From the NCBI GenBank assembly GCA_010015585.1, contig ML975163.1: a stretch of 64,000 nucleotides of DNA. The stretch is one strand, 5' to 3'. How positions within the stretch are numbered: the first letter of the stretch is position 1; each line of letters opens with the position of its first letter. The position numbers and the translations under genes were made by a program. Below are positions 25,955 to 63,809 of this stretch, piece after piece. This stretch comes from Eremomyces bilateralis CBS 781.70 (Eukaryota). Under the pieces are notes generated by a model, which made no database searches, was not told the origin of the DNA, and was given only the letters and a program-made list of their open reading frames with translations.

Positions 25955-28309
<2,355 letters not shown>

Positions 28310-36890: not shown

Positions 36891-37059
36891 CCTTCTAATC
36901 CCAGAAATTCTATCCCAGGAACACTATCCCAGAGCGTGCCCAGCCTCTTTGAAGAAAAGAAAAACACTGGTACTCAAATTGCGCATATGTTTACCCAAAA
37001 CAATCGCTACAACAGACAACAAAAACAAACACACGATCCCCAAAATCCCCAGGGACGGC

Positions 37060-39490: not shown

Positions 39491-39793
39491 ATGGGAGGAC
39501 GTTTTGTTTGATCGTAGGAGCTCATTCGTTCGTGGGGGAGGTTTCCGTACGGTGGGTTGAGATTGGGGATGGCATCAAGATCCTCCTCCTGTGAGCCCTC
39601 CTCCTGGAGGATCTTCTCCGGTAAGGAGAATGGCGTCGGTATAAGAGATCGGGGGGATACAAGAATTGAATGGATAGCACCCCTCTACTGCCGAGTAGGT
39701 CCAGCACTTACTCTTATGATAGATCCCGAATGCAGTGGTCTTATTCAGGCAAACGGATGGAGATTTCCATTTCAGGAATGATAACGTATATTG

Positions 39794-39843
39794 TGCCAAG
39801 ACACACCTGGAGCTGTATCCTAGGCTCCAGGTGTGTCTTGGCA
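39794..39843. repeat. Perfect 20-bp stem hairpin with 10-nt loop
   Basis: TGCCAAGACACACCTGGAGC-TGTATCCTAG-GCTCCAGGTGTGTCTTGGCA. Confidence 0.95.
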
Positions 39844-40703: not shown

Positions 40704-41198
40704 CTTATCTCAGTTGGGACTCAGACGGGATCTGGAAGATGGTTGTGGCGGTGCAGGCATCTTCAGATGCCGTCTGAGGACCATCTGCAGCATTTTGGTG
40801 GGCGCGTAGGTAAAAAGAGCGGATTTGGCCCCTACGGCGCACTAAACTCGACCAAAATTAGCGACAGGGGTCGCTCCAAAAGTCCAACTACACCAGCCCT
40901 TCGAAACAGCCGGTGCTAATCCTTTGTTATAGAATTATTTTGATATATTTCTTAATATACTATAAAAGAGCAGATTCTTTTACCTGTTACCTAGCCCCGC
41001 CTAAACTTTAAGCTAATTTCGAGTACTGAAAGTTGAAATGGTTGACTGAAACGACTGGGAACTCTGAAAACTTCAACTACACCATCACACAAACCTTACA
41101 AAAGGACCTCAGACGGTATCTGAAGATACCTTGGCTGCACCGCCACAGTGTAGTCACGTGCAGCATCTGAAGATACCGTCTGAGCTTGCTGAGATAAG
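40704..41198. mobile_element. Non-autonomous DNA transposon (MITE, ~495 bp) with long hairpin-containing TIRs
   Basis: Ends CTTATCTCAG/CTGAGATAAG; ~80-90-bp imperfect TIRs with CTCAGACGG and TGTGGCGGTGCAG; TATAAG(CTT) duplicated at 40698 and 41199. Confidence 0.85.
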
Positions 41199-42078
41199 TA
41201 TAAGCTTGAAGTCCACGTCTGGTACCTGTTGTTGCTGGAAAGGGGTTGTATCTGCGGCGAGCACCAAGTGCTTCATATTAAACAATGGCGAAGATGTCGT
41301 CGTACATGTGTCTTGGGGTAACGGACTGGACTCCTGGAGCAATTCCGGGTAGTCCCATCAGTGTTCAAATACACATAGCGAAGACGAGTGATTAGCGGTA
41401 TACGGAAGCAGAGGAGAGATAGGAAAGACCTGACAATTACATAGATATAGAATAGCTGTTCGAGCTAACAGTAAGGTGCAATAGCTCAGAGTAGAAGAGG
41501 AAGCAGTTCGTGCAAGGAACGGCTGGACTTCTGAAAGCGAAGGGCGGGGGCACAATATTTATAATTGTACGGAGTAACGTTGTGTGCTACCGAACTTGCC
41601 TCCAAAAACGGCGGTGTCTGATGCCGTTTTCAGAGGGCTTTCCGCTTAGGCGAAACGCTCTCGTTTCGTACCAGTGGTGCCCAAATCCCCCTGCCACAGT
41701 GCCAAGGCTTTGCACTCTCACAGACTTGCTTAAGCACTTGTAGAGGAAGGGGGCCGATTTTGAAATTCCAACTCTCAGTTTTCAGTTTTTCGAACTTCAC
41801 ATCTTCTATGTCTCCAGGTCAATTTCAGAAGCATGGCGGTGTCAAACGTCATGGCTCTGTTGCGGAGCTTCTCTTTGTTTTCGCACATAATAACCAATGT
41901 CCAGGCCCCGTCGCTCGATGGATCGCTCTGTCATTCCCGTTTCTCTGATAACTTTTTTTCTTGAGCCCTCCATGTTTTGCAGTTTCAGACCGATCTAATA
42001 TTATCTTGCTGCCTTCGGTAAATTGCCCTTTGCCCTCCTACGGGACCGCTCCATGCATCAATCGCCGAGATCATCGTA

Positions 42079-42560
42079 ATGGAAGGGGGAACAAGCCGCG
42101 CCCCTGCGGCAAAAAGGATACCACCACGAGACTCGGCGTATTATGAATCGCTCTATGCCGACGACCTAACCCCAACATTGCGCCTTATCACAGATGCGAC
42201 TGAGAGGGGAATTGGCTTTGTGTGGAAGAAGTGGACAGAATATAGGTTCAGGGCTAAAATTTACCAAGTTTCTTCACTAACGGCCTCTGATTTCCGACAC
42301 ACACCCTCAAAAAAACGCCAAGCGTTCTCTCACATTTTGCAACTGTCAGATCTTCACTTCGCCAAATCTAGCTCAAAAAAGCCCGTTCCATTTCTACTTC
42401 ACCAGCAACTCGTCAAGTCGGCTCTTTGAGTAGCTATAAGAACCGCATCAGAAGTTAGTTATGTACCCTAGAAACGGCCCTTGACGCTAGGCGAGATTTA
42501 CTAAACGTCGAAAGTGTATCTCTACAAGAATTTTGTGCGGAAACGAAAGTGGAAGAGTGA
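42079..42560 (+). pseudogene. Possible truncated, degenerate captain-like N-terminal remnant
   Basis: MEGGTSRAPAAKRIPPRDSAYYESLYADDLTPTLRLITDATERGIGFVWKKWTE resembles captain first exons ending at a W-x-x intron. It lies ~510 bp after palindrome B; downstream frames contain many stops. Confidence 0.35.
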
Positions 42561-42629
42561 TTTAAGCATCAGTATTCCGTACTGTAAACCAAGCGCATGC
42601 GTGAAATGCTTCTTTGGATCTCTTCAACC

Positions 42630-45600
42630 TTATCTAGACGCTACCTTCCAGCTGTGCGTCGAGAATTGCAGCTCTCCTGTCTCACGAGCGGCCTCTGGGT
42701 CCAGGAATAGCCTCCACCCAATTCTTCGGGATGAAATGCCAAAAACTCGGCAGAGAACATACACTTCGGGCGTGTCCGAAAGGAGGGAGCTATGCGCCCT
42801 TTGCATCTACGGGGCGCAACATGTTAGAAGTATTCCGTCAGCTTGAGTGCCAGCTTACCAGATTGTATTGCCCGCTTTTCATAAAAAAGGGTTCCGAGCA
42901 ATCTTTCGTAGTCGTCTTGACTTCAAGAAGAAACTTTGTAGACGGCTTTGACGGACAGTCATATCCCGCATTAACCAATAACTCCCTCAGCCTTCCAGAG
43001 CTGTCCTCGTATACAAGATCGGCTGTTTCAGTGCCTTTCCATGGTTCTAGAGTCGTATGGCTCGGATGCACACGTATGTATTTCCGGATGGTGCTCGGCC
43101 AGTTAAGCTTACCGAAATCTTGGAGGCGGCTGCAAAGAAATTCAAAGACCTAGACCCGCTGTCAGCGCATCAGAAGCGGATCCAAAACTTCATTCTACTT
43201 ACAAATAGCTCTCCAGCTGCTCCGATCATGTTATCACGATCCAACAAGCGGGGCCCAAAGACGGCCTCGGTGTTCAGATTGGTCCACAATGCCGTTGGGT
43301 CCGCAGGCTCAGAGAAAACTGACTCGCCGATATTGGGTAGAGCTGTTCTCGCCGCGGCCTCTACTATGTGTTTGAGGAGTTCAGTGTAAGGCGCCATTTG
43401 AGAGGTCGAGTCTCTGTCCGGTATTTCAGGAGATATGTGGATCCTATCCCTTTCAACTATTTCTTCGCTACTCGACGTACGGCTTAAGGCAGGTGCATCA
43501 TATGCATCGGAAGTAGATCTTAATCTGTCTCGGCTTGGGGATGCGGGTTGAGAAGGCGCGCTATTTGGTGCGGTATCAGAGACAGCTGGCATGAACACAC
43601 CCCCTTGAACAGAGGATGTTCGATGCTGGTTTGAGTCTGGTGAATTTTCCTCGCTGCCGTCATAGTCATCTTCGGCATCGTCATCGTCGTCGTCGTCTAC
43701 GTCGGGTTTGTCTAGGCCCTCGAGCTCGGCCACCCCGGCATTTGTAATTATTCTGTCAGCGACCGAGACGCAACTGGACTGGATAATGTCCCCGAGGACT
43801 TTCTCTGCTCTAGAGTTTCGGCAGAGGAGAAACCGAAAAATGCTGCTAGGAAGTTGCTGCTTGAAGCAAACCTCTTGATCACTTCTGCGCCTAGGGACGT
43901 AGAGGTCCAATCGCCCGTTTCTATGTTCGAGGTGGAATTTCGCGCTCGGTAGAGGGACCCGGTGTGTTATGTCGTACTGAGTCAATGTAATTGACGTTGA
44001 AATGCCGCCACTGGTATAAATTGACGTGGATCGAAAGAGGTCGTAGAGACCTGTCTCGTCGCTCCCGAACTTCGCGCTGCCAAAGTGCAGAGCACAGCTG
44101 TCGCCTATTAGCTGAGACATATAGCTGGTCTAGGCGGAGCTCACCAGGTCATAAAGTATGCCTTCTCATTGAAAGAACCTGTCAGTCGTACACTGCGACA
44201 GCCTCCCTCCGCGGTCGTGCTCTCGTCCACGCAGGCTGAGCTATACCGTCCGCTCAATCCGGCTGCATCAAGGAATGCGCCGGCCTTCTGAATTTCCGCA
44301 AGAGAAAAATCCAACTTATTCAGTCTGTCTTCAAATGCAGATATATGCTCCTTACGATCCAGAATGAAAAAACCTGCATCTTTGTCCGCAAGTCTCATTT
44401 GCTTATCTTTTGTAAGGACCGGAAATACTTGTGCTCGGCCGAATTTGTCCAGGTCATCTTTGGTAGGATCCATTAACGAAATCTGGATAATACTCCTTTT
44501 GATGTCTGCGTATCTGGATAGATCTCCGCCAAGCGCCTTCAGCGCATCAATATGCATCTGCAAATCAGGCTTTTGGACCTTTAGGATTCCTAGAAAGAAG
44601 TCTTTCAGTTCCGGATACTGTGCAGCAATAGAAACTTTGTCCGGAATCTGCAAGGTTGCGTCCGCCCAGATAGCATCGCTAGCGGACAGCCACGATCCGC
44701 TTGGACAGTTGAAGATCATCTTCTCCTTTTCAAAGGCAGCCCTAGGCGTGTCAGTTTTTTCAACAGATTTTGTCAAGGTGATCGATATGATATACTTGAT
44801 TGAAGGCGCGCCATTTGAATCATGTTCAACTTGTCGCCAAATATAATGATAGATGGCCTTGATTTCGACAACTGCTGCGACCCCCTTCCCGCAACTCCTC
44901 CATTGAAGCTCCTTCAGGGCATCTTCAAGACATATATCTCTTATTTTTAACGTCACTCGGAAAAAGTCTTGTAAGCCGGTATATTCTGGGACACTTTTGA
45001 GAACGGAGGCATAAGTCTCCCATGACGGGCCGTCCCAGATACAGGAGTCATGGGATTGCCATTTGGAAACCGATAATTTCATGTTAAAGGCCTGCCGAAA
45101 GTATATCCCTTCATTTTCCCGTAGCCACTTTCTATAATGGATGAGCCAAATATTAGCATGGAAGAGAGAGAACAGACCGAATAGATTCCAGCTCAGTAGT
45201 ACTGTTGCAGCATGAGGATAATGCTTGATATACGGTGCAAGCTGATGCAGCTGTGCCAGGACCTTCTGTCTGGGCTTTAACTTCCAGGAGGCATTGTTGA
45301 TAGAATTGTCTGGTTGAAGTGACCACTACTCCCACATGTCGCAAGAACGTCCAGTCATCTTGGTTCAACAAATCCAATTTCTGAGGAAGCTGCAGAAATG
45401 GGAAGTCGGAGATTTGCAGCTTTTCGGCGAATTCGATCATCTCCGGGGTCGGTAGATACGCCTTCCGAAGTTCGGTGAAGCCTTTCTGCGTAAGTACGTC
45501 GATCTGGCGAAGACTTTTTCGAGCGGCGAAGAACATCTTATCATCGAGTCCGCTCGCTCGCCAACTGCGCTTCAGGAACCCAACGAATTTGTCTGGCTGG

Positions 45601-48115
45601 CGTTGCCGCACATATTCTGCTTCGACAGAGAGCGACGTTCCAGTATCGTCGAGCAGCGGTATGCTCGATCTCACGCCGGCCCAAACTTGGAGCCAGGACC
45701 GGAAGGTATTTCCGTCGTTTCGCTCGTGCTCCCCCGCTGCCGAGAAGTACGCGTCATCGAGAAATTCGGCTTTCAGCTCTGTATGGTTCCTGAGACGCAC
45801 AGGCTCATCTTTGTCGTCCCGAAGCAAGCTTGAAGGGCCGTATTCATCTTGGTCTCGTGGGTTTCGAAAGTATAGGTTCGACTTTTCGGTTCCACACAAC
45901 CGTACCAGGGAGCTATTTCCAAACAGGCCAATGTCATGGTTCGCAATAGAGTCCTCCGGTGGAGATTTTTGAAAAAGATAGCCAATATGAGAAACAGCGT
46001 CGGCGAGTTCAATTTGTCTGCCGAAAGGACTCTTCAACCAATACTCTCGGTATCTATCATCAATCTTCTGGATCACCAAACTCGGAGTGCAAGGCTGGAC
46101 ACCAAGTTTTTCGAACAGCTCTTGTCGAGCTATGTTCTGAGTCATTGAGTTTGGAACCAGGCAGAGACCTAGGTCATTTGGAATTGGAACTCCGTCAGTG
46201 CGATCGAAGTAGACAGAGCTGTCAACGTCATCTGCAGCAATCCAGCGGTTGCTCGTAAGGGGTATTAGCTTAAGCTGCCTTATTTTACGCTGTATCCCTG
46301 GTGCGAATTTTTTCAGAAATTCTTTCAAGGCCACTGATGCTCTGGACTGCCATTCATCTGACGTAGTACTACTCTTCCACAGCGAATCCTGCTCTTGAAG
46401 ATCGGCCGATACTCGATCTAAAAACTCAGTAATGTTCTCGGTTTTGAGGCCGAGAACTTCATAAAGCCGGCCCAATGGATTCCCTTCATACGCCTTAGAA
46501 ATGTATATTTCAGGGAGTATATCGCGGAATAACGGGTTGCCAAATTTATCGACGCTGTCGCTTCCGGGTTTACGGAGACTCGTTGGTAGAAATAAGTCAT
46601 TGTTACTCCGCGAGAACAGTATTCTGGTAGATTTGAGGGTTTCGACAATGCGATCTTTTGCAATGGACCAGAAGTCGCTGGGAACGGCATCATAGGGAAG
46701 CCAAAGAGGCCAGCTATACCGCAAAGTCTTGTGACGGCAAAATTCAAGAACAGCGACTGCGAAAAGACTACCAATTTCAGTCAGAAGCGCCTTGTTCCTT
46801 TCGGAGTGGTCTACGTCCTCTCTGTTGATTGATGTGACAAAGTCTGATTGAATGAGGAACTGTATAAGGAAAATATTAGCGATGATCGCAGACATATTAT
46901 GATTCTTGAGAAGAGTATGGATCGCGAAGATTCCACGGCTTTCCATTTTCACAGAGACTTCGGCATGTTCAGAAGACAATATTTTGGTTTTTATTACATG
47001 CTTAAGGAAACGAGGATATGGAACCCAACTAGAATGAAACACTCACATTGAAGTTGGCTTTGCGTAGAGGGAGATAAGCGTACGTCATTTGAGGTACCAC
47101 AATCGGCTCATCTTTGGCAGTGACCGGAAACGCCAATGCCACCGGAGCAGATCTTGTTTTCCGAAGCTGGTGTTCTGGCAGACCGCTCACGTCCTTCTCG
47201 AAAACGCGAAAGTACGATATTGATATCTCTGGGTCGTCGCAATTTCGCTGAACTTGCTTTTTAATCTGCCCTCTTTCATCGTTCAGTCCCCCTTTGTTGT
47301 AAGTATAGCTGGTTGTCGTGATGCTATCGCTATCAAGATGGTCATTGACTTTGAGCTGCTTTAGCTTGTTGAAAAACAGCATCATAGTGCCCTGGAGGTC
47401 GAACAAGTCTTTTACTGACTCTTTGATGCTCGCGGGGTTCGTTAGAGTTAAAACCATCCGCGTTCGAACAGAAGGTGGTAAAGGGAGAAAGTCCTCGTCC
47501 ATGGGAGTAATCATCCCCATGGAGTCCCTGAGGTCCACGCTTGGTCGCTTGAATGAGAAGGAAAGATTGACAGATTGAATGTGGACCCTGCTAGCAACTC
47601 TAAACACGGATTTGAAGCCGATGCCCTTCTCCCCGATATAACCGCGACGTTCTTTCTGTTGCTGTCCAGCCTTTGTACTTTTGTTGATATCGCAGATGGC
47701 TCTCACGTCCTCTTCTGTGAAACCATCTTCGTTCGAATCGACGATGACATGTTTTGGGAGTATGTCGAAGGAGAGAAAAGGGGTCTCGCCCTTACTTAAA
47801 GCGACGTCGAACTTGGTGTCTTCTGCATTCTGGATGAGCTCATAGATGAAACGAGTATCCTCCGAGTTGAGGTTGTCGGTCAAGCTGCGAATCGTAGCGT
47901 CAGAATGACATTATTACAGCACCTATCCGTGCTTACCTGCTCAGAGAAGCACCCAGCTGTCCGCGGAGCCCGGAAATAATTCCCAGCAATTCAGATTCAT
48001 CGTCCTTCTCCAGTAAATGGAGTTTCTCTGTCAGCTTTTGACTCATTCCTCCATTCTTTCTGCGCATCTCTGCGACCACCTCCCTACCGCGCTCTTTCGA
48101 AATCGGTATAGTCAT
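42630..48115 (-). CDS. Sacsin/NO VEIN-like protein 1: N-terminal GHKL ATPase, C-terminal PD-(D/E)xK (DUF3883-like) nuclease; multi-exon, appears intact
   Basis: RFIYELIQNAEDT, NEDGFTEEDVRAIC, IGEKGIGFKSVF, FLIQSDFVTSINRED; C-terminal IGAAGELFV...ETADLVYED...LLEVKTTT...PFFMKSGQY. Confidence 0.85.
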
Positions 48116-50599
48116 TTTCAACGCTTAGAGGGCCGGTCACTGAGGTACCTAAAACAATGAGGCAAGAACGAAATATGGAGACGAAAGGGGATTTACGAAT
48201 CATTGTAGGTTCTAACTGGCGTCCGACTTTTTATCTAGGTGTTAGCTCTACCGTGATCCCAGAATTCGGTACCTTGCGCTGCAGAATTGCGGCACAGCAG
48301 TGCGGCAAACCTAGAATCTTCATTCGCATCTCAAACGTTGGCTGCAGCGCGAACATGTACTCCTAACAGGGGTCGGAGAAGAAATAACACAATAAAAACG
48401 GGACGCGTAGCGCTGGGAGTTGACAAGGGAAGAGACTCGAGACGATACGTCTTCGAAGGAATATCAGCAAGCAAACTTAGATACCTGTAGCTCAAGATCG
48501 GATGAATTGACATACCGGTACGTCCGGTAGTTACCTTGCCGTAAAAGACATCGCATCCATCTCCTCGGACATTAAGAGGGTTGTCACCGAAACTCAGTGA
48601 GTTTGATGAAAGAGGAAGGTCCACCTCGACTTCCCACAAAAAACACGGGAAGCTGGGACCCACACACGGGCCGTTCCCTGACAGGTACAGAGCTTAAACA
48701 GTTTTCGTCTCAGATCCACAAACAGCAATAACACCAACCAAGCACCAACATCACAACGACGGGACTGCACCTCATCGTGGTGTTTGGGTCTAGTAGCCTC
48801 TCGAAGGGTGAAGCTAAGACAGTCTCAACGATCGATCACGACATTGAAATACAGCCTATCTACACCCGGTTACCGAAATACTCTTCCCCTAAGCGAGGAC
48901 TGTTGTCCGCTCGAAAAGAACCACGAACCACGGCTATCGTAGCCCACGGACAAGCACGAAATCGATCACAAAGATATGGCTGTGGAGGAAAGGGGATACC
49001 GACCACCGACATATAGTGGCGTAACCGACAGAGACAGGGGTTTCACGGAGTATAGTTCTCGATCGTGACCTCCCCGTCGCGCCTCTATGCCTAGGGAAAC
49101 GAGCTCGTTGGATGAAAGGTTTTAGATCGTTTTTAACGCTTAGTCAGGACCTACCGCAAGTAGGAGATCTCCTAGTTAAAGTGTTTCCCCCCTGTGAGTC
49201 TCACGAGACCCAGACGGTCTGGGGCCGGCGGAATCGCCACGACGAGATGTTTTTTCAGCTCCCAAGGATGGCACGTATGGAACTCAGCTTGGTGAACGGT
49301 AGTAGGGATGTATATCGCGTAGTATATGTGCTTGTGCAACGTTTTAGTACTGTATACGAGGATAGACTGCTGCCATAGCCTCTGGCTGAGCACCCAGCAG
49401 TCGGAGCTAGTGCTCCCATCGGCCTTCGCTAAGTAGGATCTAGAATATGTATTCAGGGGAATGATACAGGAGTAACGAGGCAGAGTCTAATTCAGGGGTA
49501 ATGGGTCGGGGAATGATACAGAAGCAATCGGTTGGGGAGTTGTACGACCATAAGAGAGATAGAGAAATGATTGGAGATGTCAAATTCCATTTTATCAAGC
49601 ACCAGGAGGAGCCAAGGATTCGTAATTGACCTGGGACCGTGACACTTCATTCCAGGTCGATCGATTTTGCATCTAACGTATCGACCTGGAGAAAGTGCCG
49701 CAGAAAGCTGAGGATTGAGCCTCAGGTTTGTGAGGGTTTGGCTCTGGACAACGGAAATATTTTGATCTGTACAGGTTTCAGTAGCACTTAGTAACACTTC
49801 ACTTAATATCTCCGGAGGGAAACAAAATATTTAATCAACAAGATCTTCTAGAATCCTATTAATTGTACCAGAAAGTGAGATAACTACTTCAATAGTTAAT
49901 GTTATATTCACTTCGCAGCTTCGCAGGTGTCGTGACAATGCACGAATTCGACAGGGGGTTTATCTTGGCCCAAGTGGGCCGCAGGTGCTCCCTGGCCTAA
50001 TACTGTATGATCTCGTAATTAGCGGACAGCTCCGATGCGCTAAATCCTGTGGAATTAGCCCATCTGGTCATCAGATGCAGCGTCTCTTCTCGGCCGCAGG
50101 GCTGAACCACCGTTTTGTGAATTTTGGCTCTCTGTTAAACCAAATTTGACCTTATTATTGCGAACTGGGTCGGTGAAGGATTGCTAAGGAGGTCATGGGA
50201 GTAGGTGAAAACACTGCCAAAATGGATCTCATCGACCACATGGAGCGTATTCATTGCGCTGCCATGCTTCGGGTTGTTTCGCGGCTGGGAGCTGAGTTGC
50301 GCATGTCGTGACTGTGGAAGTTCCTGTCGAATGGTGGTTTCGTCCTCAGATACTGCTGGCATTGTCCAGCAGGCGACTGGTCTGAAACTATTTAACCAAC
50401 CTCAAGGACGACATCTCTCTTCATCTGCGCTGCACTTCCCGAGCAGCCAAACAGTTCCTAGTAGGCTAGTACGAAGATAGCCAAGCACAGGCAGACACAC
50501 TGCACCATCAAATTCAACCTCTTTTCACTATACCCATCTTCTATCTCTCGTAAATTAGACATGCCAACTACCGTCCGACTACCCAGGTGATTGGTCGGC

Positions 50600-51363
50600 G
50601 TCGATGGATTAAGAATAATTCTTCCAGGCGCAACCAGCACAAGCAGAATAGGATGATCCAGCTACACATCGACTTCAACGGCAAGAACGGTGTGCTCAAG
50701 GCACCTCGCGAGGGAATCAAACTTGTCGCTGCCGAACCAGAATTCGGCCGCATCAATCTTACCGAAGAGCCGTATCGCAGTGTTTTCAGCGATTCCACTC
50801 ATTTGGAGTCGGAAACGCTTGACGTCCAGTATACCGATCCGATTGCCGTGGAAGCAATGGGGCGCACCCGTCGATGGCGATTGCTCCACCACCTCTCCAA
50901 GACGAAGGTCAAGGTCCTCGTTCGTCCCAGGGGCACCAAGCACGGAAGGTGGACTTGGCCACATTGATGATCCTGTCCGTCGCCCTGCGAGGGTCAAGAC
51001 GAGCTGGTGGCCGAGCTCCTCGGTCTCTCCCATCTAGAGGTCCTTAATACCATGGCAAAGAAGTTCTGTAGGCTCCCATTCTTGGATTCCAGCATGATAC
51101 ACAAGCTGGCCCACGTGACGGCCCACAACATCAATATATTCCGTCGCAGAAGCACATCCATGACGCGCAAACCTGCCATGACCCGACAGGTGGTAAATAT
51201 CATTGCCTCGCTCCTAGAGCTAGCCGGCAACGATGATAAACCCAAGAAGACCGAGCGACTCCACCCTTCTCGCCGAACACAACATAAAAGACAAGGGCGT
51301 TCAAGTCGTACGATCCGTAGAGAGAAGCATTATGGAAGGAGCGAGGTGGTCATGAAGGATTGA
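50600..51363 (+). pseudogene. Frameshifted coding-like remnant, function unknown
   Basis: Overlapping ORFs in different frames with coding-like codon usage (HIDFNGKNGVLKAPREGIKLV...DPIAVEAMG). No family recognised. Confidence 0.35.
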
Positions 51364-51691
51364 GGAGAAGGAAAGAACTAGGATTGCGACTACAGTGCGG
51401 ATGAGACTGGTATGGCACAACGGCCGGACTCGGATTGATGAAAGGCTGAGAAGAAGAGGTATCAAGACTAGTCAGAGGACCAATTCAGACGAATTCGAGC
51501 AGCTCGATTCAATGCCGTTGTCATCAACTGCAACACAGGATTGAACGACCCTGTTCAAATTGATGTTGACCATATACATTACAACTTGAATGCCGGCAGA
51601 ACTAGCCAAAAGATGAATTATGATATACTACGATTGCTGAGCAACATCCTTCACAAACAAACCACGGACACGGCCTCAAATCTTCTTAAAA

Positions 51692-54600
51692 TTATGCTGC
51701 TTCCGTCACCTCATACTTATCCGATCTGAACCTCAGCCTGCCTTCACGCTCCAACCGGTTCGGGTCGAGATACAACTTCAGCCCCATATCCGACTGGCCA
51801 AGATTAAACACTCTCGCGAGGATGTATACTCTGTCCGAAGCCGATTCTATGGGTAGTGTGGTGTCTATCATGAGTTCGTACTGGTTGCGGCCAACGTAGA
51901 GTGGCGTGGTGAGGCGACATGTGGAGGCTTTCACCTCAATATGGTACTTTGGTTGCTTCCCTGCCCAGAGGTCAGACCGGAGATAGCCATTGGCGACCAG
52001 TAAGCCGGTGAATTTGCTCTTGTGGTCTTCATAAACGATGTCTGAAGTCTCAGGTAATGACCAATTCGTTAGCGCTCTATAATCACGATGTGACTAAACG
52101 AGATTTCGAATCCTAGACTGCCAACTCTCAAGGCCGAAGTTCGGTAATTGGAGACTCTTCAACCATTCGAACATCTACTCAAATTAGCAACACTCATAGG
52201 CCGAACGGCGGACTTACAAAGAGTTCTCCAGCTGCTCCAACCTTGAAGTCTCTCTGGGTACCAGCCACCGCCACATCGACCTCGAACTTTGAAAAGCAAG
52301 GCTCAAGAGATACAGCGGAAGTTTCACCAACACGCGGAAATGGCGGCCCGCGCCGAGCGCTGTCGACCGCCACCTCGAGAAGCATAGTGTAGCGAGTAGG
52401 ATCTTCTTGAGTATCTGGTGTACTGAAGACTGACGTCGGGGGAGTTAAGTTCGAACCTGGCGAAAGCCCAGAGCTCCTTTGAGAAATGAAGTGGCTGGAG
52501 CTTGTACTGGACGGGCGGAAGGCAAGTTGCGCCTGCTCCAGGAAAGTAGGTCGAGGCGGTATGACCGGCCCAATCTCTCCAGTATCATCTGGTAACTGGA
52601 ACGTTGGATCGCCGTCGTCTTCTTCCGGTTCAGACGAATCCAACTCTACATCTTCAGGCCGATTGACACAAGCCACGGAAATGACTCCAGCGTTTTCTAG
52701 AATTTCGTCAACGTCTGCAAGCCCGTGGGCTGAGAATATGCTGCCCAGTTCTCCAACATAACTGTTCGGGGCGCCGAAGTGATTGAGAATAGCTTGGGGC
52801 AGGTGAGTCAGAAGGCATCGATACCGAAGCCGGGGGTCCCTCGGGATGTATACTTTCAGGCCAGCTGAATTCTCAAGACCACCTCCTTCATTGCTTTCAA
52901 CATTGCTATCCTCGTTGTCTACGTCTTCCAGGTGGCAGTATGCCTTCCCAGAAACCATTGTGACTGGCCTGCCATCCTGGTAGGTAGTCAGTGTCTTTGA
53001 AAATTCTTCACTAATCAGGACAGTTATGTTCTGAAGCTTCTTGAAACATTCGGCTGGGTCATCGCGAGCCGTAGTGCATCTCGCATGAGCAGCGTACCTA
53101 GTTTAATCAGTATTGATCCAATGCTAGTAATAAACACTCACCGGCAAATCGCATATGCCTTTCTTCTTAACTTGGTGGTCATTGAGTGATCGATCGAGCT
53201 TCTGGATGCCGTCGTCTCAGCTGCGACTGTTCCGGAAAGGTATCGATTCCGGAGACCTAGCCCAATGAGAAAGGCCTCCATTTCGTGGACTTCCTCCTTG
53301 GAGAAATCCAACGTTTTGAGCTCTCCTCGGAAGAGAGTTTCGTATTCCTGTCGATCGACGATAGCGAAGTCCTCCTTGCCATTCATCCAAGCGAGTGTTC
53401 CATCGGGGAGGCGAACGGGGAAGCATTTGCTGTCGAAGACCATTGCTAGATCACCCGCAGTAGGACTGAACTGACAAATGTTCCTGATGAGTTGCTTTAT
53501 TGAATCGCTGCTTGGCGATTTGGATGCTTCCCGCTTTAGTGCTTGGATGTATAGAGGAAGCTTCGGCTCTTCAATCCCAAGGACCGTCAGGAAGAAAGGT
53601 TTCTGCGCGGAGTACTCCGTTGCAATAGAGAATTTCTCGGGCAGGCGCACAGTATCGTTGACCCAAACGCAAGTTGATGGACTATGCCACATCTGGTCCT
53701 GGAAGTTATAGATAAGCTTATCCGATTCGAAACGTGATCTAGCTGAATTAGCATAGGAATTAAGTGAGTAGAAGTGCGGTTAATTTACTTAATGGATTCC
53801 TTCCAAGCGTTGTCCCCTCGAATCTCCGAGTGGAGCTTATTATAGAGAAGTTTGAGGATTTGGTCTCTTCTTGCCACACGGTTTGGATTTTTCAAGTAGG
53901 AAATGTAACTCAAGTAATCGTCCACTCCCGGATCAGTCGGAACTGAAAGACCATCGACGAAGAATGTCTTAAGAGATTCGTATCCAGGTAGTCGAGCGAG
54001 GTTAGGATGATGCGTGTACCAAGTCGGAGTATTCCATCGGCAGAAACTCGGGTAGCACCATGTGTCTTCCCGAGTGAAGATATAATTCCTTTCGGAGGAA
54101 CACTCAAACAGCTCTCTAGTATTGGCCGGTAAGAAGAGGAAGCTGCATTGCATACCACCGAACATGGAGGGGCCTTCAATAGCACCGAAGATTGTTCTGT
54201 AACTGTTAGTTCTACTCCCAGACTGGGGCATTCATCAGGTACCTGAGAGTGGTTTTGTGACTTGGTGTCGAGCAGAAGCCTAGAAGTCTGGAGTATATCT
54301 CCGACATTACAATGTATCCCGGGTTTTTCTTTTCGCGAGCCTTCTTCAACAGTAGCAACCAGAAGCAAAAATCTTCTTCGTACTGCACTCCTAAGTGACG
54401 CAAGAAACTCCAGTCGGACACGCCGTCATCCTCCATTCCATCAAGCTCCTTGATGAATCCGAAACCGCTCTGAAGCTCCAGTCGATCAACGATAGCTTTC
54501 AATTTTGGGAGTGGAAGATAGGTTGAGCTCAATGGTGAGAGATCATCTGAATGGAGTATCGGAACTCGGGCGAGCTTCTGGAAATCTGCTTTCCATGGGA

Positions 54601-56948
54601 TGTCGAAGTCAACATGAGACCATTGCCGCTTGAGAACTCCGAGAACAATTGAATGAGCCTTTTGAGTTGCCAGGTATTTGAACTCTTCAGCAATCGCTGC
54701 GCCAGCTCTAATCCTGGGCTCTGGTATGGACTTGACCTGGATGAATTCTTCAAGCCACTCGATGCCAGACTTGTCATATCTTCGTTCGCAAGCTCCAAAC
54801 ACTTCATAGTAGCGTGGATGCAAAAATTGAATCTCTCCCTTTAGCTGCTTCGGAACTGGATGGCCGATGACATTGGCTGCGCTGCAAGGGTCTGTGCTGC
54901 TCGGGCTGTACCACCATCTGGTCGACAAATCAGGGACTTGTTTCAAAAGATCTTTGCTCACAACCATAAGAGAAATTCTCTGTCCCTGAGACGGTAGATC
55001 GGTATGGTTCCAGAATACAAACTTGAGATGGTCGAGAGCTGTGTCCATTGTCCAGTCATCCTTCCTGCAGGCCTGTTCTAGCAATGGAAATATTCGCTGG
55101 GGAGCACATTCCGACACTCCGAGTTCTCGAAACAGCTCTGTCCTTTCGTCGTTGATAAGCGCCCGTGAATCAACTAGACTCAGGGGAAGATCTCGCGGAA
55201 TATCGATCCCTCGGCATTTTGGGAAATAGATCGATGCATTAAATGATGGAACCCATCGCTCATCCTTGAGAAGTGGCACTAATGGCAGCTTCTTAATACC
55301 GATTGCAAGTTGTTCTGAAGTGGCCACTGCTCGAAGCAAGGACCTGGAGAGATATGTATGCCATCGTGATTCCGCTGGCGTCGTGCGCAGCCGAGAGTAG
55401 CCGTTGGGTTTCAAGTCACAACGCAAGAGCCCAATGAATTCTGCGGTGGACAACGTTTCGAGGCCGAGTTTTCGGAGGATCGGAATGTCAAGAGTGGCGT
55501 CGTACTTATCTGAGACGTAGCGACTGTGAAGGTGGGGTGTAGTACAGTCGCACTCGGACAGCAGAGGTCGGTTTTCAAAGTCTCTCAAAGAGGTCGGTAC
55601 AAGTCTCAATGATCTGGCGAGTGTGGTACCGCGGTCCCCCAATGGAATGAAACAACTGTGATCCATGAGCTGGGAGAACAGCCGACTTTGAAGGGTGCCC
55701 CAAAACTCATCGGGCACCCCATTCGTTGCCAGATAGCGGAGCCATGAATATTTCAAGGTTGGTTGATCCAAAAATCCAGAGGTAGTAGTCTCCAAGAAAA
55801 GATTGACAATTTCGTCCAGAATACGTCGGTTCCAAGGGCAATTGGAAACATCTTCACGGCTCGCCTGAGTTATGAAGTCAGATTGGATAAGAAACTAGTC
55901 AGGTCAGCGTCGGCAGTTTTTGTCAAGAGAGTCTAGAGGATACCTTGAAACCAACTTTCCGGAGAGGAAGAAAGGCGAATACATGCTGCTCCTCAACAGT
56001 TGGAACGTCGTCCTGATTGAGAGGAAAGGCCAAAAACACATCTGCTGTCGTGATACCTGTTCTTGCTTCTTCCTCGGGCATATTAGTGATTGATTTGCTC
56101 GCGATCCAGTAGTTGAGATTGACAGTGTCATGTTTGATGGTTCGAGCGATACAAGCTCTATTATTCTCGATCGACAATTCGTACACCTTGCTGACAATCT
56201 TCTCGTGTCTTTCGATGCGAATTGAAAGCTTTTTTAATTTCCGTAGAAATAGTAGAAGGGTGTCCGGAAGAGCCTCAAACTCGCGAAGCAGGGCGTCCTT
56301 ATCGACCCTATCATTCAGGTGAAGAATGATGCGGGTCCGAACACCCAACAACTCATCGGGAGGTTCCACGAGAGGTGTGACCATTCCAAGTCCAGAATCC
56401 GGTAATCCACGATTGTACTCGAATGCAAACGAATATGGTTCCGACTGAACGTGAACTTTGCAGGCAACTTTGAAGACAGATTTGAATCCAATACCTTTCT
56501 CGCCAACATAGCCTTCGATTCCCGACTTGGTGCTTTCTCCTACCCTGCAGATTGCCCGGGTATTGGCCTCGGAGAATCCATCCTCATTGGAGTCGATTAT
56601 AATACGCTTGGCTGAAACAGTGAATGAGAGATGAGGACGCTCCTTGTTTCCATTAGCGATGGAGTACTTATTGTCTTCCGCGTTCTGGATCAATTCGTAC
56701 ACGAAGCGGGTATCCTTCGAGTACAAATTACGGGACAGTCTGGGGAAGTCAGTCAAAAGCATTTAAAGAGAATAGAGTACCTACGCCTCTGTGCTTGCAC
56801 AAGCCAGCCGTCGAGCTCCGTCGACGCTTTTGATGATATGCGGGCGATTCACTCGAAGATATTCGCGATCCTCGGCTGAAAGCCAACCATTCTCGGTCGC
56901 CAGTTCCTGGATCAGAGCCTTCGCTTCTTCCCTGCTTGTGCTAGTCAT
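51692..56948 (-). pseudogene. Sacsin/NO VEIN-like protein 2 with an in-frame TAG just before the nuclease motif
   Basis: LYSKDTRFVYELIQNAEDNKY, VGEKGIGFKSVF, VGAAGELF...WQSRIRNLV*SHRDY...ETSDIVYED...YHIEVKAST; stop at 52094-52096. Confidence 0.8.
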
Positions 56949-57712
56949 AATGTCGAATGATAAGATATTGGGCTATTATTGATTAAATGTGATGGTGCTA
57001 GCGTTGAATCATTCTCTCAATGATTCCTCGCGGCATGATATAGTAGCCAGTCCTAAAGGCGTCCTCTTTAAATACCTCAGTCAATGTCTACGGCTCTATC
57101 AGCAAGGGTACTACTCGCTTCGCCTCATTCATGAAACTCGAAATGTCTGGATATCAAGCCTGCCTGAGATTCACAGCCTTACCGGTTCATGAAGACAGGC
57201 GAATCGCCTAGTTTAGCGCCACGCTTGGCTGCCCACTCCGATGGGACGAATGTAGCCATTCACTCATGTCGCCGTAACGCTGCTACAACACAATTCCTGC
57301 TCCATATCGGGAAATATTCGAATCTGAGATCATGGAAAGAGATAAGGCACTCGTGAATTGAAGAAAACGATCGCTTACTGATGACTCGAATGCATGGCGC
57401 CAAGGTTGCGGCGAGGACCGCTGCGGACCCGACTAGCTTCCTTTGGGATTCTTTGCCTGGTCGCAACCCACTTCATTTATATCGGCAGCGCTTGCCTTGA
57501 GCAGATTATCAGTCATTGGTGGCTGTACGGAAACCAGATCGAGGAGCCTAAAACGACTCCGACTCAAATGGGCTCCGGCTCAAATCGTATGCGATCTGGG
57601 AACGGGCAAGCAATAAAGAATCCATCAGCCCCTAGCGAATCGCAGCAAATCGCAGCAAATCGCAAGCGACACTCCATTTTATATCACACTAGACAACTCC
57701 ATACGTGCTATG

Positions 57713-58004
57713 TAGGGTGGGTGTAAGAAATGAAATAAATAGGAGTCTGTAAATTACCGAATTAATGCAAGAAAGTAGTTTATTTCTTTCCATTATTTTC
57801 TTACCTAATCAGAAATCTCGTAGAAGCCCCTTGGCGGTTGGTTTTCCCGACCATAAATGTTCGTGCCTTAGGCATCAACATACGATGCGCTAAACAAATT
57901 GGGTTAGCGTTTTTTGCGAAATTTACATCGTATTCTTTGTTTCTTACACAAATTTGGGGATTTCTTCGCAACAAATGTTTATTTCATAAATTTTACCCAC
58001 CCTA
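57713..58004. mobile_element. hAT-type MITE (292 bp)
   Basis: TIRs TAGGGTGGGT...ATGAAATAAA; perfect 8-bp TSD GTGCTATG at 57705-57712 and 58005-58012. Confidence 0.92.
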
Positions 58005-59269
58005 GTGCTATGACAGGAAACGTAGTATGAAACAGGGAAGACTAGCCGCACAGTATCGACTGTCTAGAAGACGCAGGGCCAAGCATGAGGTGGAAAAGGA
58101 GAGAGGGGAACCTTGCGCATTGTTGGCTGCTGTTGAATGAAAATTAATGAGATCTAAATTTGGCTAGGAATCAAAGGAGTGGGTGATAGTTTGGAGTTGC
58201 AGTCGTTCTCATACCTACCCATGGCCACGTTTGGCCAAACAGACACATAGACCCTTGGCGCGAACCGGCCCGCTTTCCCCGCAGCCTTGTCTCCTGTAGC
58301 GACGGGCGGTACAGTTGCGACCAGAATCGGTTTCCGGTTTGCACTCTGATTTGTTCTCATCGCACGATCCAACATGACAAGGGCAGCTGCGTATTTACCA
58401 CTAGTTTTCGTTACATAATCGAACCATTTCTTGGCTTGAAGCATTGCTGCCTTAGACGGTTATGAATCATGTGGTTTTAATCTTTCGAAGATCGTCAATC
58501 CGAGAACATATTATTAGCGATTAGGAAGAAGACCGTATTCCGTCCGATCCAGCATCAAGAACCGCAGAAATCTGCGGTCTTTAATTTCATCTCTGAAGAG
58601 CCAGATCAGGATCCCTTTTGAAGTGCGGATAATATTTTGGCCGGTATTCAATGTATATCTTCCTTGGTTGTTCTGGATCACTGATATCTAACTTAACCAC
58701 CTTGAATGAGTGATTTCTATATTCAGTATGCCTGACAGTGAGCTTGTTCGTCCGTGTTTTCAAGTATAAAACATTTTCTAGGTGAATTACGCTTTTAAAT
58801 TTAGCGAGCAGGATCGGGGAAAATTTATGCATGTATGTCGATTCATTCAGAGTCAGATCCGGCAGAAACTTGAGGTTCCGCCGCAGTTTCCTGAGGGGTC
58901 TGTAGGGACTCCTCAAGAGGTACTTTCGCTAAATTACGACTAACCGTAAAGTACTGGCTGTTTTCATAGCTTACCAAGCAAGGTCAAGCTCAGAATATCG
59001 TATGAGCCAGCCTGCTAAACCCTTTTTCAAGTGGCTAATACTATATGTATCGACCGTATCGATCCGGGAATTGGTGCCGCCTTCGGGTCGCCTTGCCTGT
59101 TCTTCGTATTAACATGACTACGCATCCTTGCTTTGAAACGGCGCGAGTATCGCTTATGCCGGCTTCACCGATAGGGGGTGGCGTAGCGCACTGGTGATTT
59201 GCTTGCCAGCTCGGCAGGATCTTCGGCAGAGAGCCCTAAGGCGAGAAGCGGTGGAGTGGGCGAGTTCTA

Positions 59270-59351
59270 GGTGAGCAGTGGATGAGAAGTAAGTGAGCAG
59301 TGGGTGAGCAGTGGGTGTGTAGTGGGTGAGGGCGGTGAGGCAGTGGGTGAG
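59270..59351. repeat. Short tandem GTGAGCAGTGG array
   Basis: About 6-7 degenerate 11-12-bp units. Confidence 0.7.
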
Positions 59352-59788
59352 TATCTGAGTATTGAGTACTCCGTAATCTGAGTGCTACAGAATTACCATT
59401 TGTAGTCTAGCGCCATTATATTTAGGTATAGCGCTGTTTTCCATTTTTAATCTTCACGTCCTTCAAAACATAAATAGTAATTCTGAGAGAGTAGTATATC
59501 ATGTGACCATGAGGGTGTAAATGGAGCGGCAGTGAGGGTGTGAACGGAGCACCAACGGGTGTGAAAGGAGCCTCACCCGTCCCTGGTAAGGCACCCCGGT
59601 CTTTGAGCACTACAGTCTGCAGCCATCAAGGGGAGAGATGCAACGAGGCAGACAGCTGTGCCGCATTGTATCAAGTTTAATAACCCCTCAAGCCTTCATT
59701 AAATGTGTTCCAAGTTCGTGTTTCTCTTAATCTCACCGACTCTTAACTCAGTTTTATTATCATCTGTACCTTATATCCTACTTCAACT

Positions 59789-62098
59789 ATGCCTCTCAAT
59801 CTGACTCTGGATGATGAATCTCTGCCTCTTACACGGAGTATTGCAAATGAGAACTTCCCGCAACAAGGCCAAATTGACTGGGTGTCATTATCGCGAGGCA
59901 CCATTAACTTCTCCTTTGGCGTCCTCTCCAGGCTATCTGCGGCGTCTGTGGATCCATATACCCTCTCGTTGGGTCATTTTATCGGGAGTAATTTCCAATT
60001 TTCGTGCACTGGACGGCAGAACATTGAACAAACGCTTAGAGGCCTCAAATCCTTTGGTGGTGTTGGCGATGTTCTCTGGTTCGGGTTCGGCGTCAAACAT
60101 CTTATTCGTGCCATATCGGTTACCGAACAGGGTGCAATGTTGGTTGCTCTCTGCGCAACGCTCGCAGAATGCTTTCCAGATGAGATAAGCGCGGAAGTAC
60201 TCAGCCACCTTGCGAAAGGCACCGCGGACTTGAAAGTTGTACCATCATTGAGCGAATGGCGCTCCTTAGTGCGCTGTTGCGCGGGAACTGTCGCCACAAC
60301 ACCGTTTCCGTTGCGGGCAGAGACACTCATGGGAGTTCATGTTGGGATCGCTACTGGATCATCCGTTGGAAACCCGGATCCACATGGCTTAGCAGAGACA
60401 TTGCTTGGTATAGGCAAGCTCTCGCGCGGTGTGTGGAAGTCGATCACGATTACCGGACCAAGGGAGGTAGGGTGGATTGCAGCAGTGGCTGAATGGCTGT
60501 TCGGACTCACAGTCACCATCCTCAACGAGGACGGCGACGTGAAATATTCGAGTAGTCGAATTGACCATGTCGCGAGCATCATTATTTTACCCGAAAATAC
60601 GTCTGAAACAGTGGGAAAAGCTCCCATGTTACACGTTGTGGATAAATCATTCGAACTCCGCACCGCTCTGGACCTTTTTAACCTTAATTCGAGTGTACCT
60701 TTAGGTGGCGATAATGTTACTCGCATCTGTGGTCGAGTCAAGTGGCACCAGTGTTTGCATGCGGCATTTGGTATCCACTTCGAAAAGCTGATGACGATGA
60801 AGACAACATTTTGCGAGATATTTGCAAGTGCCTCACGGGTTTTCAAGGCCATTGCGAATTGCAATAAAGACATACAAACAGGGGACTCCTCCAGAAATCG
60901 GCTCTATACTGATCGTTCCTTCGGCATTGGACTTATACAGCACTCGGCGAATTGGCTCCCTGAACTCTCGCCTGCGGCGTCCACCATTCAAAATTGTTAC
61001 GACAACACCCCAGATGCGGAAGCTAGAAGCAAGTACGAGGCGAGGCTTGCGCTGCTGGCAGTGTCTTGTAAATGCAGGTTATGCGACCCACCAAAGAGTC
61101 GTGTGCGCAAAGATGATGCTGACCTTCGGTGCCTCGTTGTGATCACCGAGACAATAATTGTGCTTTGCAGATTATTGTCGACGCTTGAACTTGTCGAATC
61201 GCCTTTTCCTCTCCTGCGAGGTATTCAGAAATTGTACGGCGTGCAAGCGACCAGACGCTGCAGATTTCGAGATCAAGAGACAGATATGGGCGCGGTAGTG
61301 CATATACTGGATGATCCGCGCGTAGAAGGCACTGCACCGCTACTTGCTGCGCTATCGCTCTTCGCTGGACGTTCAGCGCTCAACCTAGACAAGAACGTGA
61401 TATGGCCTTGTGCGGTGTCAGCTGGAGGAATCTGTGTTTATCTGAATACCCTTCATGAGCCTTCTGATGATAAGGAGGTTGTAAACCAGATCTGTGTGGT
61501 TCCAGGACAGATCGAGTGCAACGAGAAGCCATTCTACTGCGTTGAAGATTGGCCTTACTCGAATGAGAATCTCTCTCGCTGGTTGGACGGTCAGGCAGAG
61601 TGTCGAATGCGGGAACCCACAGGGGACGAGCGTTGGACCAAGATGACTAACAGCTCTTTGATGTGTAGTGTCAAGGTTGAAGTTAAGGAGACAGTTCGCT
61701 CTCTAGCCATAAGATACAACATCATGGATGATCGGAACCAGCCAACACACCTATCTTTCAGCCCGATGCTTTTGGCTCAAGGGGCTTCGCATTCGCGCGG
61801 TCTAGTCCATTGCCCAGAATCGCATCGGGTTCAACCCATGGTTGCTTCTGGAAGCCCATCTGAGGAGCTATTAAAACGTCTCGAAGAAACAGGGATCACA
61901 TTTCGTTTGTTGAAAGCTCCAGTGCTAGGGCGATGCGCGGCATTGACGAGTTTTGGTCACAATCTGATTCTTCAAGAGAATGAGTGTCTAGACTGTTGCA
62001 TCAAATCAGCTCTAAGCAGCGACAGCACTGAGATTATCGTCATTTCACAAACCGAAAGAGGAAGCGCATCTGACTCGGTGTTCAGCGAAAATAGATAG
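59789..62098 (+). CDS. Intronless 769-aa fungal protein of unknown function
   Basis: Long uninterrupted ORF with QQGQIDWVSLS, VLWFGFGVKHLIR, CKCRLC and a C-terminal ECLDCC. Confidence 0.85.
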   Translation: MPLNLTLDDESLPLTRSIANENFPQQGQIDWVSLSRGTINFSFGVLSRLSAASVDPYTLSLGHFIGSNFQFSCTGRQNIEQTLRGLKSFGGVGDVLWFGFGVKHLIRAISVTEQGAMLVALCATLAECFPDEISAEVLSHLAKGTADLKVVPSLSEWRSLVRCCAGTVATTPFPLRAETLMGVHVGIATGSSVGNPDPHGLAETLLGIGKLSRGVWKSITITGPREVGWIAAVAEWLFGLTVTILNEDGDVKYSSSRIDHVASIIILPENTSETVGKAPMLHVVDKSFELRTALDLFNLNSSVPLGGDNVTRICGRVKWHQCLHAAFGIHFEKLMTMKTTFCEIFASASRVFKAIANCNKDIQTGDSSRNRLYTDRSFGIGLIQHSANWLPELSPAASTIQNCYDNTPDAEARSKYEARLALLAVSCKCRLCDPPKSRVRKDDADLRCLVVITETIIVLCRLLSTLELVESPFPLLRGIQKLYGVQATRRCRFRDQETDMGAVVHILDDPRVEGTAPLLAALSLFAGRSALNLDKNVIWPCAVSAGGICVYLNTLHEPSDDKEVVNQICVVPGQIECNEKPFYCVEDWPYSNENLSRWLDGQAECRMREPTGDERWTKMTNSSLMCSVKVEVKETVRSLAIRYNIMDDRNQPTHLSFSPMLLAQGASHSRGLVHCPESHRVQPMVASGSPSEELLKRLEETGITFRLLKAPVLGRCAALTSFGHNLILQENECLDCCIKSALSSDSTEIIVISQTERGSASDSVFSENR

Positions 62099-63809
62099 TA
62101 GTTTACTACCACAGATATTGAATCAGACATTTCACAATCGAGAGTACTACGTTTGTCTTTTTGTTAATAATTATCATGGATGTAAGCCAGGTTTGTCAAT
62201 GACGAAAACTTGCAGAGCAATCTGAAAAGGCTATGTTGGAATGTGAGCCAATTATGTAGACTAGACCTATACTCGAAAGAAATCCTGATTTGGCTCTTCA
62301 AGATGTGGAAACAAACAGGGCAAGTTTCTGCGGTATATGATTCGGGATCGATCAAGCATGAACAGCAGGTGCTCTCTGTGCTCCTGTGTCCTCACTCCAA
62401 GCAAAGAAAAGAACAGGAACGGGCACGACGAAACGATCAATCGAGTGACGGCCCTTAACATTGGTAATTATATGCGAAGGCAGAGGGAGGCTCTACAGCG
62501 GAGCTATAGTATTTAACAGTGTCATTTTCCGAAATTAGCATAGAGATATAGCAGTTGCTGACACGGTTTGGATGCGCAAGGTCTGCGATTACCAAGTTCC
62601 ATTAATCTAAACTGAAGAGAGAGAAGGAAGAAACCTCCCAGCGTCTCTGCGCGCAAGATATAGAAGATACTTCCTTTGTTCCTATCTCCTTTGTGCCTAT
62701 CTCCTTTGTGCCATCCACTAGCCACATCCCTGTGGCGTCAGCCATACTCAAGGGCTCAGGCCACAGGCCTGGGACCATAACAGTTGCGAAAGTCGAAAAC
62801 CCTCCAAAAACGGCGTCAGAAACCTCCGTGTCTGGAGGCAATTTCTGTAGCACACAAAGTTACTCCGTAGGGAACGAAGGGTTCGCGCCCGATGGAGGAA
62901 ATCTCGCGCCGCCAACAGGAGTTCCGGTTCGCGAGATGCCCGGGGTTGTCGATAGGAGCGTGCATCTCCGATCCAAGATGGCATATGGGCGCCCGGTAAA
63001 GGATAAGGGGAATTTGAATTGTGAATTGCACGAGGACAGGGATAGTTGCCACTTAAGTATTCGGGGCCGCTGCGGTGGAAGACGCTCTGCACTCGCTATC
63101 CTATCGCCACGGCTCGACCGCTCTTCTACTTGCATGCGCAACCCCGGAATTTACCCCTGAGTTTGCCTCGCCGCTCTTGCCGCCAGTCCACGACTTGCAA
63201 GAGGATGTGCATTCTACACCCAAGGCATGGATATACCATTCTGTCCTGGTTAGCGTGCCATCAGTAATATTGTTTGGGGGGTGCGTCCAAAAATAGCGGA
63301 AGGTGAAGCGGTAACATGGATTGACATTGATGCGGTCTGCTTGATATCTTTCGTTTTCATCTCCCTTTCAGTCCACGACCAGTGACGGCCAGGTATAATA
63401 TGCGACGACGCTCTCATCCCTATGCACACGCCCAAGGTTAGAGGAGAAAATGGTCACTACAAAATTCCATCGTCGCTGGATCCGAGATCGTACACAAGCT
63501 GCTTGACTCAAAGATAAGGGGCTGCCTCTGTCTATAAGAGCGCATGGTTGCGAGAAGTGTAATAATTGGGTTGGAGGAAATCTCAATGGTCGTGCTGGGC
63601 CACTAACCTCGAGTAGCCAGGGGTATCGGTAGTCAGTGGACCGTTATCCCGCGGGTAGATCCAGCTGCTCACGTTTAGATGATCGTAGAAATTCTAGTCC
63701 ACGAGACCACATGCAATGGCAACCGAGCAATTAGATCCACGGGCTTTTAAGTTCGCATGGATGGGTTGGCGTGCAAGAGCTGGAACAGCCACACCGCAAA
63801 GCACACTCG

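Follow-up and report, generated by a model that had tools for sequence, protein, structure and literature searches.

Starships excise as circles in which the 5′ end is joined to the 3′ end (bioRxiv 2026.09.21.753150). Hephaestus of Paecilomyces variotii targets TTAC(N7)A, and its engineered derivative miniHephaestus, in which the captain is frameshifted, moves when a captain is supplied in trans (PMC10104507). Tardis h1 of Aspergillus fumigatus is reported to target TACGGAGTA (PMC12153272, Table 1; 2 of 463 supplement rows), and in 29 supplement rows of PMC11162782, in which no family is named, the upstream repeat is mostly TACGGAGTAA and the downstream repeat is TACGGAGTA. Nested and tandem insertions are described in the same work, with a smallest element of 15,020 bp, and nested Starships (Phoenix-in-Voyager) and captainless derelicts (Derelict) are described from Macrophomina (bioRxiv 2021.12.13.472469). 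Here, we analyzed 64,000 nucleotides of the Eremomyces bilateralis CBS 781.70 genome (the window; from contig ML975163.1 of GCA_010015585.1, G000:C15:171995-235994 in our numbering of that assembly, which holds 26.9 Mb in 95 contigs), in which a 21.3-kb block (41568..62869) is bracketed by an inverted repeat. A sequence-only reading of the window had offered two explanations, a nonautonomous giant element with unusually long terminal inverted repeats (TIRs) or two head-to-head 5′ ends of related elements. The block is very probably a pile-up of independent insertions within a 33-kb Hephaestus-type Starship, with the arms of the repeat being two 5′ ends of one family.

Two 5′ ends of one dispersed Starship family

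The inverted repeat is as first described: positions 41568-41642 and 62795-62869 align without gaps at 64/75 identities, both arms open with TACGGAGTAAC, and on extension the match reaches 67/80 (62790..62869 on the right side). The chance expectation for such a match in random sequence is ∼3e-18; for a dispersed repeat such as the arm, however, random sequence is not the right null model. In comparisons made within the one assembly, by searches that score best candidates, positions 41500-41800 gave 33 nonself matches, of which 28 fall on the arm and 5 on the left flank, and the terminal pattern of the arm was found at 21 genome sites (0 for the reversed control). We catalogued 25 copies of this 5′ end; copies start sharply at the TACGGAGTAAC / TACGGAGTA core, with DNA upstream that is unrelated between copies. 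In five of them, a DUF3435 captain gene lies at the 5′ end in sense orientation (0.6 to 1.1 kb downstream on contigs C5, C17, C20, and C32; 3 kb downstream, with an insertion, on C3). The element that begins at the left arm, X, retains exon 1 of this gene only, and the element that ends at the right arm, Y, has none. Both arms match this 5′ terminus, and inward of a solo long terminal repeat (LTR) the right arm resumes as 5′ sequence, which supports the reading as head-to-head 5′ ends.

The two arms are not each other's best match. Among the 24 other ends, 7 are closer to the left arm than the right arm is (best 71/75; the nearest copies, on C20, C42, and C3, reach 69-71/75), and 8 are closer to the right arm than the left arm is (best 68/75, at C3:1450382, versus 64/75 between the arms). 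Across all 300 family pairs, the median score is 62/75, and a score of 64 is reached in 35%. By this measure, the likeness of the two arms is ordinary for the family. With 25 to 45 ends placed at random and without clustering, 0.14 to 0.46 convergent pairs within 25 kb would be expected.

An all-against-all comparison of the loci gave a common family 3′ terminus, ...GGAAGTTCGGTAGCACACAGAT followed by TACG(G/T)AGTA, and an architecture in which a 9-bp direct repeat encloses a short asymmetric TIR. Within the DNA compared, ten of the 25 5′ ends could be paired, each with this distinct 3′ end (10/10) and none with an inverted 5′ end (0/10). The direct repeat TACGGAGTA is perfect (9/9) in Y and in the copies on C20 and C6, agrees at 7 to 8 of 9 positions in 6 more, and is degenerate in the remaining one. 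The paired copies span 2.5 to 14 kb, and most carry no captain. At the block itself, the TACGGAGTA cores of the two arms stand in inverted, not direct, orientation (flanking DNA ...ATAATTG on the left and GGGAACG... on the right), and we found no target-site duplication or direct repeat outside the two arms. The right arm has a partner of its own at 59367, and both family 3′ DNA and the end of the outer Starship lie beyond 62869. The proposed 21.3-kb unit with giant TIRs does not survive these results.

By its target and direct-repeat motif, TACGGAGTA, the arm family would be assigned to the Tardis (family 3) Starships (PMC12153272); formal families are captain clades, so the label rests on the motif, and none of the 16 homologues found for the arm-family captain carries a family label. 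It also shows the pattern of the PMC11162782 rows, TACGGAGTAA upstream and TACGGAGTA downstream. As in Tardis h1, full-length copies have the DUF3435 gene just inside the 5′ end and a short TIR within the repeat. In contrast, the TIR of Tardis h1 is tctgcggtgacggcg, and GTGCTAC/GTAGCAC was not found in the accessible part of the supplement that holds the Tardis h1 rows; moreover, Tardis h1 averages 82 kb, versus 2.5 to 14 kb for the mostly captainless paired copies here.

At C8:89364 (L126:3364-3372), a family 3′ end runs head to tail into a 5′ end over a single TACGGAGTA, the form expected of a circle or of tandem integration. One 5′ copy (L007; G000:C1:2389334-2389371) has its internal hairpin loop inverted.

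Outer Starship A, broken element X, and mini-element Y

The two arm-family elements sit inside a TTAC(N7)A Starship, A, as the sequence-only reading had anticipated in calling the block nested. Element A (32129..65109, plus strand; 33.0 kb; G000:C15:204123-237103) runs past the end of the window and has a TTACA direct repeat at both ends and a 17-bp TIR (at 32139 and 65090); TTAC(N7)A is present at 4/4 A-family 3′ ends examined. Its paralogue at C7:212105-196268 is 93 to 97% identical over 32129-41576 and 64708-65109 and has different flanks, so that the same TTACA repeats and the same TIR are seen at two loci. A DUF3435 tyrosine recombinase gene (32592..35344, plus strand; PF11917, E = 1e-9 and 9e-34) is its captain. 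Element A thus resembles Hephaestus in its TTAC repeat with A at +7 (4/4 copies), its 5′ captain, and its TIR (PMC10104507), and we class it as putatively Hephaestus-type by target motif, the evidence for the captain being the Pfam DUF3435 match. Unlike Hephaestus, its 33 kb are filled with nested insertions.

The captain of A is only ∼25% identical to that of the arm family and therefore is unlikely to act on TACGGAGTA ends. The TTAC- and TACGGAGTA-targeting families nevertheless have related subterminal motifs at both ends (∼78 to 85%), which in A lie at 32154-32207 and ∼64997-65053, the second beyond the window. We had considered 32154-32207 as a third copy of the arm and rejected it, as it is this inner motif of A's own 5′ terminus and not a Tardis-type end. 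The TACGGAGTA family is found nested in the TTAC family more than once: at L090 (G000:C9:592880-593153), an arm-family 5′ end lies only ∼270 bp inside another outer-family 5′ end.

Element X begins at the TACGGAGTA core of the left arm (41568..41576, plus strand). In the C7 paralogue of A, the same left flank and TACGGAGTA are followed by no family 5′ end and then by a HET-like gene (recognized by eye), not by the sequence at 62870; the left target site is empty in this paralogue. The left arm and following 5′ region (41568..42281, plus strand) are 74 to 79% identical to 5′ ends on C32, C42, C5, and C3, and homology ends at 42281, within captain intron 1, in the alignments with C20, C32, C3, and C42. 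The possible captain remnant of the sequence-only reading proved to be exon 1 (42079..42240, plus strand; 54 codons), 511 bp inside the left end, with tblastn matches of 64 to 70% to the DUF3435 N termini of 7 other copies and 65% identity to residues 23-88 of the captain protein P0035. A terminal fragment of another repeat, found as inverted pairs on C22 and C1, lies at the break (42297..42350; 94%). Outside the right arm is a subterminal 3′ segment of the arm family (62991..64257, plus strand, in the window to 64000; 87 to 88% to C20, C3, and C42) that lacks the last ∼640 bp and the terminus. The copies that match it best (C20, C42, and C3) are also the best matches of the left arm, and the segment probably belongs to X, which would then have extended past the right arm.

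The right arm (62790..62869, minus strand) is the 5′ terminus of Y (59367..62869, minus strand; 3,503 bp), a mini-element with the family 5′ end at 62869, the 3′ end at 59367, a perfect TACGGAGTA direct repeat, and no captain (no tblastn match to P0035 or P0037). Two features within the block went beyond the sequence-only reading, namely, the family 3′ end of Y (59367..59476, minus strand; 75 to 80% to family 3′ ends at 9 loci; direct repeat at 59367-59375) and a solo LTR that shortens the right arm (62559-62782, or 62554..62787 with duplications; TG...CA, 5-bp target duplication GTTGC, many genome copies). Inward of this LTR lies a remnant of the 5′ region (62397..62558, minus strand; family positions ∼240-400) that is 69 to 85% identical to 5 other 5′ regions, with 85% to the C32 copy. 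The apparent TIR length of 75 to 80 bp is therefore an accident, set by a deletion and the solo LTR in Y. Both ends of Y carry CTACAGAA in place of the CTACCGAA of the left arm, and they share a short asymmetric TIR with the variant GTGCTACAGAA (GTGCTACCGAA in the left arm). Element Y is a captainless derivative of a Starship, not a member proper, and differs from derelict Starships, described as large degraded regions, in being small and having both termini and a perfect direct repeat.

The sole gene in Y is the 769-amino-acid open reading frame (ORF) already noted in the window (59789..62098, plus strand), which is antisense to the element. Its product belongs to a conserved fungal family (34 homologues, best 49% over 98% of the length) and has no Pfam match and no usable Atlas match. 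The structural model (predicted local distance difference test score of 79; predicted template modeling score of 0.82) gave no Foldseek match at E ≤ 0.001 and, compared as a whole model, reached a best Z of 4.4; single domains may hold a known fold. No second copy of Y or in-genome empty site was found in G000, and the flanks match different loci. The right flank (62861..62975) is a 90 to 92% copy of a piece of an aspartyl-protease gene (Pfam Asp) at C5:209129-209218 (L095:6129-6218), where the TACGGAGTA site at C5:209218 carries no element. That the copy of this host gene stops exactly at the TACGGAGTA target hints that flanking DNA may have been cotransferred.

Taken together, these features suggest the following course of events. 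The TACGGAGTA-targeting Starship family would have inserted into A two or more times, in both orientations. Element X (plus strand, from 41568) would have lost its captain after exon 1 as well as its 3′ terminus, and Y (minus strand, 62869 to 59367) would have kept both ends and one cargo gene, without a captain. The arms of X and Y resemble TIRs because they are a common family 5′ terminus in facing orientation. Tyrosine recombinases excise DNA between directly oriented cores and invert DNA between inverted cores. Element Y, with its direct cores, would thus have the right substrate for movement in trans, assuming an intact Tardis-type captain in this genome. Two inverted 5′ ends, on the other hand, could not free 21.3 kb as a circle and at most might invert the block.

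The remaining contents of the block were also largely as first described. Two sacsin-domain genes (Pfam SACS), which we presume to merit the label NOV-like, are present: gene 1 at 42841..47910 (minus strand, approximate ORF span; also HATPase_c_3) and gene 2 (ORFs 51692-56762) within a segment at 51310..57417 (minus strand), a second copy of which, on C31, is 91% identical over 6.1 kb and has different flanks. The miniature inverted-repeat transposable element (MITE) at 57713-58004 (57705..58012 with duplications) is flanked by the 8-bp duplication GTGCTATG, has 3 copies at 90 to 92%, and is presumably hAT-like given the length of the duplication. A segment at 48491..49661 (plus strand) is 96% identical over 1.2 kb to C17:12629-13797. 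The interior of the block is thus a mosaic of pieces found singly elsewhere (6.1 kb on C31, 1.2 kb on C17, and short repeats). The pieces at 49654-49867 and 59075-59353 are 9.2 kb apart in the window versus ∼200 to 250 bp on C12 and C4, so that sacsin-type gene 2 and the MITE would sit in a further insertion or a split repeat. Elsewhere in A, a gapped inverted repeat of ∼200 bp (36037-36237 and 41323-41524) brackets 5.4 kb with a SET-domain gene (37739-38497).

Competing explanations for the 21.3-kb block

Several other explanations of the block were weighed against a pile-up of insertions. It is unlikely that the inverted 5′ ends recombine with each other or bracket an exchangeable cargo slot of A, such that the block is inverted or swapped as a cassette without free transposition. 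In both A copies, variable cargo begins exactly at the TACGGAGTA site and an inverted family 5′ piece lies near the 3′ end, consistent with a cassette; however, the ∼50-bp piece on C7 has no terminus and covers none of the sequence kept in Y, no such inverted fragment is present in a third copy of the A family (C5), and variable sequence in the window stretches from 41577 to about 64647-64708, not to 62869, and so extends 1.8 kb beyond the right arm. Still less probable is the nonautonomous giant element of 21.3 kb, with 75-bp TIRs and mobilized in trans, or a composite that uses two 5′ ends. Although the left arm begins exactly at a site that is empty in C7, the right arm begins at a site that is empty in C5, and the ends still agree at 64/75, the empty sites lie at two different loci: left-flank matches (C7, C56, C10, C8, and C1) and the right-flank match (C5) never adjoin. 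The mosaic interior, the lack of a flanking duplication, and the absence of inverted 5′ ends among the partners of the 10 paired members argue in the same direction, and neither a second copy of the block nor a joined empty site was found among the best candidates scored in G000. This explanation is largely refuted. Reads of another sample (X3) covered 4 of 30 bins over 25001-45000, with no flanking host gene at 85% likeness and with family termini on unrelated contigs only; the other two sequencing runs are from one sample, possibly the source of the assembly, and are not independent.

The TA that opens both arms would permit a Tc1/mariner-type TIR element with a TA duplication (TA/CGGAGTAAC...GTTACTCCG/TA), which we consider highly improbable given that the whole 9-mer recurs as a direct repeat at family 3′ ends, that family copies sit upstream of DUF3435 genes, and that 0/17 ORFs tested within the block have a transposase Pfam match; the direct-repeat architecture of the paired copies refutes the TA-duplication reading. 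A mis-assembly at repeats that brought the arms together is just as improbable. The 95-contig assembly is fragmented, contigs from the sequencing runs break at repeats, and among those listed none bridges 41568. Nevertheless, family copies differ by 5 to 25%, so that reads should place uniquely; the window contains no N; A closes correctly with matching ends; and read depth at 43010-45000 is near single copy (176 to 186 versus 146 to 155 in flanking genes) and approximately double in the shared part of A.

Several observations weigh against an origin of the block by independent insertions of X and Y. Beside the 3′ end of the C7 paralogue (G000:C7:196666-196845) there is also a ∼50-bp stretch of family 5′ sequence in inverted orientation, together with part of the same LTR, an arrangement for which the pile-up does not account. 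On its other side, the C5 site does not resemble the DNA to the left of 59367, whose paralogues on C12 and C4 have no target at that position. With flanks that do not trace to a single empty site, Y may have arisen by deletion or as a chimera, possibly of two same-strand insertions. The inner 5′ region of X is only 76% identical to the C20 subfamily, versus 88% for the 3′ piece, so that a common origin of the two is likely, not proven. Finally, 15 of the 25 family 5′ ends have no 3′ end within the 10 to 30 kb searched downstream.

Mini-elements and a mating-type gene

Seven of the paired elements are 2.5 to 4.9 kb long (some lengths are approximate, as certain loci contain N), and among these only the C42 copy retains a captain remnant. 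Those of 2.5 to 4.3 kb, which differ in cargo, lie at G000:C6:781295-785034, C32:32681-35209, C24:30245-34485, C3:1106911-1110969, and C42:4452-7739. The cargo is usually a single gene, encoding a nitronate monooxygenase, a YhhN protein, a MAT alpha-box protein, or a NACHT protein (the last recognized by eye), and in 5 of the 6 mini-elements with a clear gene, Y and the element on C9 included, it runs antisense to the element.

The C9 element (C9:183012-178099; L089:2099-7012) is a 4.9-kb captainless sister of Y in which family sequence persists over ∼330 bp at the 5′ end and 1.3 kb at the 3′ end, with a 7/9 repeat, and it contains the sole MAT alpha-box match in G000. This MAT1-1-1-like gene (∼L089:4775-6070) looks intact, with an intron after the motif RPMNSWLAFR, a combination that we take to be typical of MAT1-1-1. 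It sits between aminotransferase-like and AAA-ATPase-like genes (by eye). An HMG-box gene adjoins an exo/endonuclease gene at G000:C15:424491-430000, unlinked to the C9 gene; we take these two to be MAT1-2-1-like and APN2-like, respectively. A search for DNA or protein remnants common to the MAT1-1-1 region on C9 and the MAT1-2-1 locus on C15 found none. As read from the sequence, this arrangement suggests that homothallism (self-fertility) may have arisen through a Starship derivative. We tentatively raise the possibility, which we hold to be more doubtful than probable, that captainless mini-Starships of 2.5 to 5 kb, mostly with a single gene (n = 7), pick up host genes and owe their movement to a Tardis-type captain acting in trans, and that the C9 element brought MAT1-1-1 into a MAT1-2 genome and made it self-fertile. 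In the literature searched, there was no case of a Starship derivative changing a mating system; a Metarhizium preprint tested a Starship origin of an accessory MAT locus and rejected it (10.1101/2025.08.27.672719).

Together, X, Y, and A recall nested and derelict Starships, with a Starship inside a Starship and a captain lost while cargo was kept. The 3,503 bp of Y are far under the 15,020-bp minimum of PMC11162782. The engineered miniHephaestus is a precedent for elements of the Y type; however, it is synthetic and kept ends of 3.8 kb and 1.9 kb, compared to ∼240 bp and 110 bp recognizable in Y. The "nonautonomous" element of PMC12506042 is a Tc1/mariner passenger, not a Starship. We found no account of natural few-kilobase, two-ended Starship derivatives in the literature searched, which left most subscription journals outside its coverage; curated supplement tables may list such derivatives or this TIR.

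With the 21.3-kb unit dissolved, its nesting is of a kind already known, and its long TIRs are two copies of one 5′ end. The locus cautions that, in Starship hotspots, family termini in inverted orientation look like TIR elements. The interest now lies in Y, a naturally occurring 3.5-kb derivative that has a single gene and both of its recombination ends. Elements of this type would show how little end sequence Starship movement needs in cis, and annotation anchored on captains would miss them. If the sister element on C9 did move MAT1-1-1, then a Starship derivative would have changed a mating system.

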